A program made the position numbers and the translations under genes. The notes below the pieces were generated by a model. The model was given only the letters and a program-made list of their open reading frames with translations, made no database searches and was not told the DNA's origin. Below, in pieces: positions 54,392 through 57,448 of a stretch of 64,000 nt of DNA. The first letter of the stretch is position 1; each line of letters starts with the position of its first letter. This DNA is from Miltoncostaeaceae bacterium (GTDB lineage: Bacteria > Actinomycetota > Thermoleophilia > Miltoncostaeales > Miltoncostaeaceae), in NCBI GenBank assembly GCA_963698665.1, contig CAVORO010000003.1, positions 1,311,831 through 1,375,830 on the forward strand. The letters run 5' to 3'.

Positions 54392-55853
54392 ATGACCACC
54401 GAATTCGCGCAAGAGCCCGTCTTCACCCTCGATGGACCCGAGTACATCGAGGTCGACGGAGAGCTCGTCCCGAACTACGACCTGACCATGCCCGACTTCG
54501 ACGAGGGCAGCGTCGTCAACGGTCGGGTGGTGCGCATCGACAAGGACGAGGTCCTGATCGACGTGGGCTACAAGAGCGAGGGCGTGATCCCGCTCCCGGA
54601 GCTCTCGATCCGCAAGTCGGTCAAGCCCGAGGAGGAGGTCGAGCTCGGGGAGATGGTCGACGCCCTGGTCATGCAGATGGAAGACCAGGACGGGCGACTC
54701 GTGCTCTCCAAGAAGCGCGCGCGCTTCGAGAAGGCGTGGAAGCGCATCGAGGCCGCCGCAGCCGCCGGTGAGAACGTCGAGGGCAACGTGATCGAGGTCG
54801 TCAAGGGTGGGCTCATCCTCGACCTGGGCGTCCGCGGGTTCCTGCCCGCGTCGCTGGTCGACATCCGCCGCGTCCAGGATCTGGACGAGTACCTGGGTCG
54901 CCGCCTCGAGTGCCGGGTCATCGAGCTCAACCGGAACCGCAACAACGTCGTCCTGTCCCGCCGCGCCGTGCTCGAGGACGAGCGCCGCGAGGTGCGCCAG
55001 AAGATCCTCGACGAGCTCCAGCCCGGCCAGGTGGTCGAGGGCGTGATCTCCAACATCGTCGACTTCGGGGCCTTCGTCGACCTCGACGGGATCGACGGCC
55101 TGATCCACATCTCCGAGCTCTCGTGGAGTCACGTCAACCACCCGTCCGAGGTCCTGGAGATCGGGCAGAAGGTCAAGGTCAAGGTGCTCGACATCGACCG
55201 CGACCGCCAGCGGATCTCGCTCGGCCTCAAGCAGACCCAGGCCGACCCCTGGCAGAGCGTCATCGACGCGTACGAGGTCAACGACGTCGTCGAGGGCAAG
55301 GTCACCAAGGTGGTCACGTTCGGCGCCTTCGTCGAGATCCACGCCGGGGTCGAGGGGCTGGTGCACATCTCCGAGCTCGCCACCCATCACGTCGAGAACC
55401 CGCGTGAGATCGTCAATCAGGGCGATGTGCTGGCGGTGCGCATCATCGAGATCGACGCCGACCGCCGCCGCCTCTCGCTGAGCCTCAAGCGCGTCGCCGA
55501 CGGCGACGCGGTCCAGCACCGGCTCGAGGGTCCCGGCGGGACGCCGATCGGCGTCGGTGACGACGGCCTCGACGTCGAGGTCGTCGAGGCACACGTCGGC
55601 CCGGACGGCGAGATCGACGAGATCGAGGTCGTCGAGGACAGGGGTACGAGGCGTCGAGGCCCACGTCGGCCCGGACGGCGAGATCGACGAGATCGAGGTC
55701 GTCGAGGCACACGTCGGCCCGGACGGCGAGATCGACGAGATCGAGGTCGTCGAGGCACACGTCGGCCCGGACGGCGAGATCGACGAGGTCGTCGAGATCG
55801 ATGCGCAGATCGAGCCCGACGCCGACGCGGACGCCGGAGACGACGCCCAGTAG
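54392..55853 (+). CDS. rpsA: 30S ribosomal protein S1 with an acidic tandem-repeat tail; frame break inside the repeat (raw ORF runs to 56119)
   Basis: Four S1 domains (GSVVNGRVVRIDKDEVLIDVGYKSEGVIP..., VEGNVIEVVKGGLILDLG.., VVEGVISNIVDFGAFVDL.., VVEGKVTKVVTFGAFVEI..). Beyond 55640 the raw ORF becomes Arg-rich shadow sequence. The frame carrying the remaining repeat copies ends ...DADADAGDDAQ* at 55853. Confidence 0.85.
55577..55799 (+). repeat. 48-nt (16-codon) tandem repeat, about 4.5 copies, within the rpsA 3' end
   Basis: The unit is GAGGTCGTCGAGGCACACGTCGGCCCGGACGGCGAGATCGACGAGATC (EVVEAHVGPDGEIDEI). Copies lie at 55577-55624, 55695-55742 and 55743-55787. A 70-nt disrupted copy lies at 55625-55694. 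Confidence 0.9.
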
Positions 55854-56475
55854 CGACACGCCGCGGGGGGCGCCGCCGGCGCCCCCCCTGCTCGGCCTCA
55901 CCGGGGGGATCGGCGCGGGCAAGTCGGCCGCGCTCGCGGCCTTCGCGGCCCACGGGGCGGCGACCCTGTCCGCCGACGAGGTCATCCACCGCCTCTATGC
56001 GGAGCCCGGTGTGCGCGACGCCGTCGCCGCCCGCTTCGGGCCGGGCGTGCTGGACGCCGACGGCGGGATCGACCGCGCCGCCCTCGGCGGCTCGGTCTTC
56101 GGGGACCCGGACGGGATGACGTTCCTCGAGGAGCTGTTGCATCCTCGGGTCGGCGCCGAGCGCAGGCGCTGGGTGGCCGCGGCGCGCCGCCGCCGGCCGG
56201 CGCCGCCGGTGATCGTCTGCGAGGTGCCCCTCCTGTTCGAGGTCGGGGCCGAGGGGGAGTTCGACGCGGTGGTGGTGGTGAGCGCACCGGACGCGATCCG
56301 CAGGGCGCGCGTGGCGGCCCGCGGCCAGGACTTCGCGGCCCGGGCGGCGCGGCAACTGCCCGAGGCCGCCAAGCTGGCGCGGGCCGACGAGTCCTACGTC
56401 AACGACGGGACGCTCGATGACCTGGACGCGTGGGTGGCCGACGTCGTCGAACGACGCGGGAACGGCGGCGCGTGA
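55801..56475 (+). CDS. coaE: Dephospho-CoA kinase
   Basis: P-loop LGLTGGIGAGKSA, then EVPLLFE, and a typical length. ATG 55801 is the only canonical in-frame start upstream of the P-loop, and it overlaps the S1 tail by 53 nt. The start is uncertain. Confidence 0.8.
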   Translation: MRRSSPTPTRTPETTPSSDTPRGAPPAPPLLGLTGGIGAGKSAALAAFAAHGAATLSADEVIHRLYAEPGVRDAVAARFGPGVLDADGGIDRAALGGSVFGDPDGMTFLEELLHPRVGAERRRWVAAARRRRPAPPVIVCEVPLLFEVGAEGEFDAVVVVSAPDAIRRARVAARGQDFAARAARQLPEAAKLARADESYVNDGTLDDLDAWVADVVERRGNGGA

Positions 56476-57095
56476 GCGCCGCGGACGCCGCCGCCGGGCG
56501 CCCGCGCCGGCGCGTCGGCGCGCTGGTCGTGTGGCTGTTGCTGGCGAGCGTCGCGGTCGGCGGCGTCCTCGTCGTGCACGCCACGATGCCCGGGTGGTAC
56601 GCCCGCATGTGGTATCCGCTCGAGCACGAGGAGACGATCCGAGCCGAGGCCGCCCGCAGCGATCTTCCGCCGGAGCTCGTGGCGGCCGTGATCTACGCCG
56701 AGTCGGGCTTCGTCCCGGATTCGCGGTCGCCGAAGGGGGCGGTCGGGCTGATGCAGGTGCTTCCGTCGACCGCCGCGTGGATGGCCTCGCGGCCGACCCG
56801 CCCCAGCCCCGCCCCCGGCGATCTCGAGGACCCCGAGGTCAACATCGCCTACGGCGCGCACCTGCTCGGCGAGCACCGGCGCGAGTTCGGGTCGGTGCCG
56901 GCCGCGTTGGTCGCCTACAACGCCGGGCACGAGGCGCTTCGGCGGTGGCGACGCGACGCGCGGGCCCGGGGTGAGGCGCTCCGCATCCCCGAGGACGTCC
57001 CCTACGCCGAGACCCGCGCCTACGTCGGTCGCGTGCTCGAGATGGAGACGGTCTACCGGCGCGCCTACGGCGGCGACCTCGGGGCGTCCGGTTGA
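56472..57095 (+). CDS. Membrane-anchored lytic transglycosylase (SLT domain)
   Basis: GTG 56472 overlaps the coaE stop (GTGA). TM segment VGALVVWLLLASVAVGGVLVV, catalytic block AVIYAESGFVPDSRSPKGAVGLMQVLPSTA, and AYNAG. Confidence 0.8.
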   Translation: MSAADAAAGRPRRRVGALVVWLLLASVAVGGVLVVHATMPGWYARMWYPLEHEETIRAEAARSDLPPELVAAVIYAESGFVPDSRSPKGAVGLMQVLPSTAAWMASRPTRPSPAPGDLEDPEVNIAYGAHLLGEHRREFGSVPAALVAYNAGHEALRRWRRDARARGEALRIPEDVPYAETRAYVGRVLEMETVYRRAYGGDLGASG

Positions 57096-57448
57096 CCCTG
57101 CGGCTGGACCACGTCGCCCTGACGGTGGCGGACCCGGCCCGGAGCCGGGAGTTCTACGCACGGTGGTTCGGGGTCGACGAGGTCGTGCACCGGGATGGGG
57201 ACCTCACGATCGTGCGCCCGCCGGGCGGCGGGCTGCTGGCCTTCCATCGCGGGGACGCCGGAGCGCCGGCGCCCGCGCGAAGCCACTTCGGGTTCCATGT
57301 CGTCGGCGTCGACGACGTGCTCGGCTTTCGCGCGAGGGCGCACGACGGGGGGCTCGAGGAGGTCGCCTTCCAGCACGCGGGGGGCTTCGCCTACTGCCGT
57401 GTGCTCGACCCGGATGGCCACGCGGTCGAGGTGTACGCAGTGGGATGA
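57092..57448 (+). CDS. VOC (glyoxalase/bleomycin-resistance/dioxygenase) family protein
   Basis: (L/M)TLRLDHVALTVADPARSREFYARWFG...HFGFHV...DPDGHAVEV. TTG 57092 overlaps the previous TGA. Confidence 0.75.
   Translation: MTLRLDHVALTVADPARSREFYARWFGVDEVVHRDGDLTIVRPPGGGLLAFHRGDAGAPAPARSHFGFHVVGVDDVLGFRARAHDGGLEEVAFQHAGGFAYCRVLDPDGHAVEVYAVG

Follow-up and report, generated by a model that had tools for sequence, protein, structure and literature searches.

The acidic tandem-repeat tail of ribosomal protein S1 in a Thermoleophilia bacterium, and a frame break within it that is probably a long-read consensus error

INTRODUCTION

Ribosomal protein S1 binds mRNA on the 30S subunit and unfolds it, using the basic faces of its OB-fold domains. 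The described form closest to the protein considered here is the four-domain actinobacterial bS1 (NF005911/PRK07899), exemplified by RpsA of Mycobacterium, the gene for which lies beside coaE.

A well-described acidic C-terminal extension on an RNA-binding protein is that of Hfq, the tip of which acts as a nucleic-acid mimic that competes with RNA and accelerates RNA release (PMC9037510, reviewing Santiago-Frangos et al. 2017). How strong the resulting autoinhibition is depends on linker length and on how densely the acidic residues are placed (PMC9037510). The MFD metagenome-assembled genomes (MAGs), one source of the loci compared below, were built from Nanopore reads only with Flye and one round of Medaka (PMC12313526).

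The rpsA gene described here was found in a 64-kb stretch of DNA (‘the window’) from a contig of 1,524,802 nt. It shares with actinobacterial bS1 the four S1 domains and the gene order rpsA–coaE, and differs from it at the C-terminus, which consists of an acidic tandem-repeat tail of about 115 residues. An earlier note on the same DNA had pointed to this tail as something out of the ordinary, and to a disrupted repeat copy that breaks the reading frame, which it ascribed to a single superfluous base beside a genuine variant insert. As set out below, a sequence error within a real and variable tail is upheld by our analysis, while the single-base form of that error and the singularity of the tail are not.

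RESULTS

The rpsA gene and its repeat array

The S1 ORF begins at ATG 54392, contains four stretches matching PF00575 (Pfam, E = 4.3e-75) and passes the NCBIfam equivalog model NF005208, ‘30S ribosomal protein S1’, at 420.7 bits against a cut-off of 368. The actinobacterial S1 model NF005911 was not passed (513 bits against a cut-off of 691); its profile was matched up to position 369 of 486 only, with its tail part unmatched, which indicates that the tail of the window's protein is not homologous to the usual actinobacterial S1 C-terminal region. The S1 body is identical in amino acid sequence to that of a close relative (locus L081, protein P0005), and coaE lies directly 3′ of rpsA in the window and in four relatives (L081–L084). 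We conclude that the gene is an ordinary and essential rpsA, that of an uncultured bacterium of the Thermoleophilia related to the Miltoncostaeaceae, encoding four S1 domains and an acidic C-terminal tail of ~110–117 residues. The features of the locus are collected in Table 1.

Table 1. Features of the rpsA–coaE locus (window coordinates)
Feature	Position	Strand	Basis
rpsA body: N-terminal segment, four S1 domains and linker (...RVADGDAVQHRLEGPGGTPIGVGDDGLDV) into the repeats	54392..55576	+	PF00575 (four stretches), NF005208
Repeat copy 1 (48 nt, EVVEAHVGPDGEIDEI), S1 frame	55577..55624	+	
Damaged stretch of 70 nt, remains of two units, frame lost; core 55638-55666	55625..55694	+	Alignment to L081
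Two clean 48-nt copies (55695-55742, 55743-55790), coding in the +1 frame only	55695..55790	+	Repeat listing, GC3-GC2
Conserved S1 C-terminal end (VVEIDAQIEPDADADAGDDAQ) and true stop TAG 55851-55853, +1 frame	55791..55853	+	Same ending in relatives
False extension of the raw S1 ORF as an Arg-rich shadow over coaE, non-coding in that frame	55854..56119	+	Frame signal, relatives
Hairpin of 10 bp, G+C (GGGGGGCGCC-GCC-GGCGCCCCCC), between S1 stop and coaE, CTG 55888 directly 3′	55865..55887	+	Centroid structure
coaE (dephospho-CoA kinase), likely start CTG 55888 (MLGLTGGIGAGKS...)	55888..56475	+	PF01121, TIGR00152

Tandem Repeats Finder returned a period of 48, 3.0 copies, 96% matches and a score of 269 for the S1 tail, far beyond chance. 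The second copy is 70 nt long and carries 22 extra nt (ACAGGGGTAC plus GAGG-CGTCGAGG), and a GGGG run is located at 55641–55644; these positions and lengths are as the earlier note had given them. Beyond this copy the raw ORF, annotated as 575 aa, runs in an Arg-rich frame across coaE (PF01121) to 56119, and the +1 frame holds the remaining copies and ends in ...IDAQIEPDADADAGDDAQ*, with its stop at 55851–55853. Re-reading of the frames and the difference between GC3 and GC2 (the window is 74% G+C) both confirmed this arrangement. The GC3-minus-GC2 signal leaves the S1 frame for the +1 frame at ~55640–55650, which is the strongest mid-ORF frame change within the 64-kb window. The other candidates raised by the GC3 scan corresponded to opposite-strand gene shadows or to gene boundaries, and no other convincing mid-gene frame switch was found over the whole window; the frame defect is thus tied to the repeat. 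Downstream of the break the +1 frame has a full coding signature, and the conserved end is undamaged. In the tail frame a weak match to the Pfam family TonB_C fell below its cut-off and was disregarded.

Comparison with close relatives

A scan of species-representative genomes yielded 80 orthologous S1 loci, all of Thermoleophilia type. One close relative, L081, shows 97.8% DNA identity to the window and encodes an S1 of 488 aa. An uncultured Thermoleophilia MAG that represents a separate genome (L001, protein P0006) is 95.3% identical at the nucleotide level over 7.1 kb, and its S1 is intact, with clean 48-nt copies and a C-terminal end like that of the window. Two further relatives, L082 (P0001) and L084 (P0004, a short-read k141 contig with ~90% DNA identity), fall together with P0005, P0006 and the window's raw ORF (P0003) into one 90% protein cluster; a second cluster is represented by L083 (P0002), which has a compensated double frameshift in copy 1. 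In L001, L081, L082 and L084 the gene is read straight through to ...AGDD[A/S]Q*, and in these four as well as in L083 the tail ends as in the +1 frame of the window, the ORF of the relatives stopping at the position equivalent to 55853. An alignment with S1 orthologues, which the earlier note had asked for, accordingly finds the acidic repeat tail in frame in close relatives; the tail is genuine and its proper frame is +1, as had been proposed.

Two GTDB loci titled ‘Bifidobacterium breve’ (L004, CAMAVU010000007.1; L008, CAMCOB010000003.1) encode S1 proteins with 82–85% protein identity to this Thermoleophilia S1, outranking most Thermoleophilia, and their titles are probably wrong. The L083 contig (ERZ25039603 contig_18487) is rich in errors: aligned with the window over 7.1 kb it opens 39 gaps, its DUF1501 and SLT genes are broken up, and its S1 copy 1 reads GSRRRGRRRGRTSA and not LDVEVVEAHVGP.

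Copy number differs between these close strains (two in L084; five in L001, L082 and L083; 39 + 4 × 48 nt, or ~4.8 copies, in L081), which bears out the suggestion that it varies from strain to strain. All natural variants of the array, comprising 2, 4.8 and 5 copies together with indels of 9 and 12 nt, are in frame. At ~55816–55827, within a GACGCC/GACGCG hexanucleotide run at the end of S1, there is an in-frame 12-nt (DADA) length polymorphism, L081 and one contig of run X7 lacking the 12 nt. The array does not behave as a phase-variable (on/off) contingency repeat would, given that the unit of 48 nt is divisible by three and that the known variants keep the frame.

Units resemble one another more within a genome than between genomes, GCC-type units forming the majority in L081 and GCA-type units doing so in L001, L082 and the window. 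Such a pattern suggests that slippage or unequal recombination continues to homogenise the array, and makes the earlier proposal of a recent expansion, or of continuing slippage or recombination, a reasonable one. The 48-nt unit is not shared beyond the window's clade, where it occurs in 2–5 copies, and an exact-pattern scan of JGI metagenome contigs did not find it; as far as the sequences compared here go, the EVVEAHVGPDGEIDEI unit is confined to this clade.

Origin of the frame break

At the site of the window's anomaly, L081 carries a 39-nt unit in frame, GAGGTCGTCGAGGCACATGTCGGCCCGGACGGGGATATC, which ends in GGGGATATC and is followed by a unit starting with GAGGCCGTCGAGGCCCAC. In a global alignment, window positions 55625–55694 equal these 87 nt of L081 (the 39-nt and 48-nt copies) minus five deletions of 1, 13, 1, 1 and 1 nt, 17 nt in all and clustered within ~30 nt, with 0 substitutions; the segment left by the deletions reads GAGGTCGTCGAGG-ACA-GGGG-TA-C GAGGC-GTCGAGGCCCAC. 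The fit to clean units of the L001 type is worse, requiring 26 nt in at least five gaps and two substitutions. The features GGGG...TA...C, GAGGC(C)GTC and GCC CAC are common to two independent assemblies, and we take them on that ground to be real features of a variant. By this alignment, closely spaced deletions are all that sets the window apart from an in-frame gene. L081, on which the comparison turns, is a long-read contig too. The true array most likely comprises five units, with a 39-nt variant and a 48-nt copy at the break, rather than four units and a 21-nt insert, and the corrected S1 would most likely be ~488–495 aa long, with its stop at 55851–55853.

The proposal of the earlier note was that a 21-nt in-frame variant insert (...EVVEDRVRGVEAH...) is real and that the sole error is an extra G in the run at 55641–55644. 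Homopolymer indels are indeed the classic long-read error, and removal of one base anywhere in 55638–55660 restores the frame. However, L081 carries GGGG in frame (GACGGGGATATC), so that the run appears authentic and removal of a single G would not produce the true sequence; the absence of any substitution across the 17 missing nt also speaks against this proposal, as does the observation that neither DRVRG nor a 7-residue insert occurs in any relative. We consider it very improbable in this form.

A programmed +1 ribosomal frameshift that joins the S1 body to the acidic tail might be imagined, given the G-rich, Shine-Dalgarno-like AGGGG and the two rare AGG codons at the break. The site is absent in every relative, however, including L081, all of which read straight through; there is no in-frame stop at 55637–55660, and the codons that precede the AGG codons, GAC and ACG, cannot re-pair in the +1 frame. 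A two-frame arrangement of S1 of the prfB or Ty1 type was found in none of the five close relatives and 133 wider orthologues, each of which is single-frame, and we give such a mechanism practically no credence.

When the S1 tails of 164 fetched loci were sorted by whether they reach an acidic end or an Arg-rich frame, Arg-frame tails were found in 7 of 42 complete long-read ‘contig_N’ loci (MFD/LOGT MAGs) and in none of 98 complete short-read loci (31 GTDB, 67 JGI; Fisher p = 1.5e-4). If these tails were real at the frequency seen in long-read loci, ~16 would be expected in the short-read set, and the finding of none there argues against real alleles. The loci with Arg-frame or frameshifted tails (L013, L041, L045, L046, L052, L066 and L080) come from Nanopore-only MFD MAGs, and several of the MAGs with frameshifted tails are GTDB species representatives. 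Two further loci (L030 and L076) have tails that are similar by eye and lie below the classification threshold. The shifted frame of L046 runs in frame into coaE and thereby creates a false S1–CoaE fusion ORF.

The length of the window's contig (1.52 Mb), for a sediment-type metagenome, points to a long-read MAG, and the platform of this assembly is inferred on that basis. Both L081 and the error-rich L083 derive from one sample (ERZ25039603); strains with different arrays therefore co-occur, which is a setting for consensus errors in repeats. Reads, possibly from co-occurring strains with unlike arrays, would not be unambiguously placeable within the repeat, and this is the likely cause of the erroneous consensus.

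Logan contigs of sequencing runs were also searched. A contig of 355 nt from run X1 matches window positions 55300–55580 with 0 mismatches, where L001 differs at 7 sites, and of the words sampled from the flanking 10 kb, 68% occur in this run; X1 is thus taken to contain the strain of the window. There is no X1 contig over 55629–55661 among the Logan contigs, which fragment in the 48-nt repeat, and X1 is not listed among the runs that hold any of 4 sampled 31-mers of 55606–55692. This gap over the junction, as negative evidence from fragmentary contigs, is suggestive rather than decisive. In the Logan contigs of runs X49, X51, X54 and X55 the region is without coverage.

The remaining explanation is a real and recent mutation, by which S1 would be left with 1.3 repeat units and an Arg-rich extension of ~150 residues across the coaE start, or its tail would have been lost in function. 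The assembly does record that sequence, the rest of the window looks clean, and the S1 tails of the class change very rapidly, the shortest having 17 residues, which suggests that some of the tail could be done without. Five deletions within ~30 nt are, moreover, many for an assembly with no other obvious flaws, and this counts against an artefact. The same five deletions would nonetheless have to be independent mutations, unaccompanied by any other change, in a gene whose downstream tail and conserved end are undamaged and keep their coding signature and whose close relatives are all in frame. Both translation over the coaE start in a different frame and the replacement of a polyanion by a polycation at the end of an RNA-binding protein would be expected to carry a cost; defects of this class are found in long-read assemblies only; and run X1 lacks the junction. 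We regard a real mutation as improbable. That the break is an artefact, with the single-base version of the error counted in, is by contrast highly likely.

The start of coaE

The coaE product matches TIGR00152 from profile position 2 (95.3 bits against a cut-off of 65.55). The sole canonical start in the window, ATG 55801, lies inside the S1 tail and corresponds to GAC in L001, L082 and L083; there appears to be no conserved canonical start codon for coaE, and CTG 55888 is its likely start. Gene callers disagree on the length of the product (220 aa or 154 aa). The hairpin at 55865–55887, a shorter form of which is present in L001, is no stronger than shuffled sequence (z = −1.0) in this 74% G+C DNA. 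Farther downstream, three single-base indels separate the window from L001 at 57460, 57529 and 57648, within 200 nt; they lie 3′ of a glyoxalase-family gene (57092–57448), probably in a non-coding or divergent region.

S1 tails across the Thermoleophilia

In 133 clean orthologues, the part of the protein C-terminal to the fourth S1 domain is 114 residues long at the median (range 17–259), with a median Asp+Glu content of 31%, and half of these tails have some short unit in three or more tandem copies. The repeats differ: EEAIV occurs ~17 times in L002, AEPAAEVE is found in L003 and EAAVP in L039. Two loci, L085 and L086, have S1 bodies 87–90% identical to P0001 and acidic tails unrelated to that of the window. 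Across these acidic extensions it is the composition that is conserved and not the sequence, even at ~90% identity of the bodies. A long, fast-evolving and often tandemly repeated acidic S1 tail is a class-wide feature of the Thermoleophilia, so that the tail first singled out in the window turns out to be the norm for S1 in the class. We found no mention of such acidic S1 tails in the S1 literature searched.

An AlphaFold2 model of the intact L082 protein, computed from an alignment of 60 sequences, shows four beta-barrels (pLDDT ~76–89), a disordered linker at residues 381–395 (pLDDT below 50) and, in the repeats, six regular beta-strands of 9–11 residues with a period of 16 and GPDG turns (pLDDT 61–72), the alignment being shallow in the tail. 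The model could be taken to mean that the unit forms a strand-turn (GPDG) beta-meander, and that in-frame gain and loss of copies (2–5) yields a polyanionic module of strain-specific size that tunes mRNA capture. We put this forward as a speculative reading, and hold it to be improbable; in spite of the model and of the homogenised units, the repeats may simply be disordered.

DISCUSSION

The best reading of the frame break is a local long-read consensus error, in which a real pair of variant units was rendered 17 nt too short and the tail is otherwise intact. We assign this a probability of roughly 0.85. That the break is a sequence error had been suggested before, and is favoured here by relatives that are in frame and by differences from L081 that consist of deletions only.

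The main value of the finding lies in quality control. The annotated 575-aa S1 of the window's MAG is wrong, and the wrong ORF masks the start of coaE. Errors of the same class affect about one in six S1 genes in Nanopore-only Thermoleophilia MAGs, species representatives included, and this will carry over to pipelines that take rpsA as a marker gene or tally pseudogenes.

The survey of tails across the Thermoleophilia offers in addition a modest lead on how the RNA binding of S1 might be tuned. In the window's species-level clade, the array of the 16-residue unit (EVVEAHVGPDGE[I/V]DE[I/V]), encoded by 48 nt, stays in frame, is probably homogenised through slippage or unequal recombination and ends in a conserved ...AGDDAQ. 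The tail would act as a tethered polyanion on the protein with which the ribosome captures mRNA; for short periods it would cover the basic surfaces with which the S1 domains bind RNA, in competition with RNA, and would thereby raise selectivity and speed the release of RNA, tuning the stringency of binding. A change in copy number would tune the effect. By analogy with Hfq, a tuning role of this general kind is probably what the tail has.

The likeness to the Hfq tail lies in an acidic C-terminal extension, variable between species in both length and sequence, on a protein with basic RNA-binding surfaces. Hfq is unlike S1 in being an Sm ring, an unrelated protein, with an acidic tip of a few residues, whereas the S1 tail is built from a 16-residue unit present two to five times. 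As to the frame break, the window resembles the indel errors described for Nanopore-only metagenome assemblies (Flye with Medaka; PMC12313526, PMC9262707) in that its differences are deletions only, that they sit on a megabase contig and that comparable defects are seen in long-read loci only. It departs from the classic Nanopore error, an indel in a long homopolymer, in that the deletions lie in a G+C-rich tandem repeat and that only one of the five falls in a homopolymer (CC).
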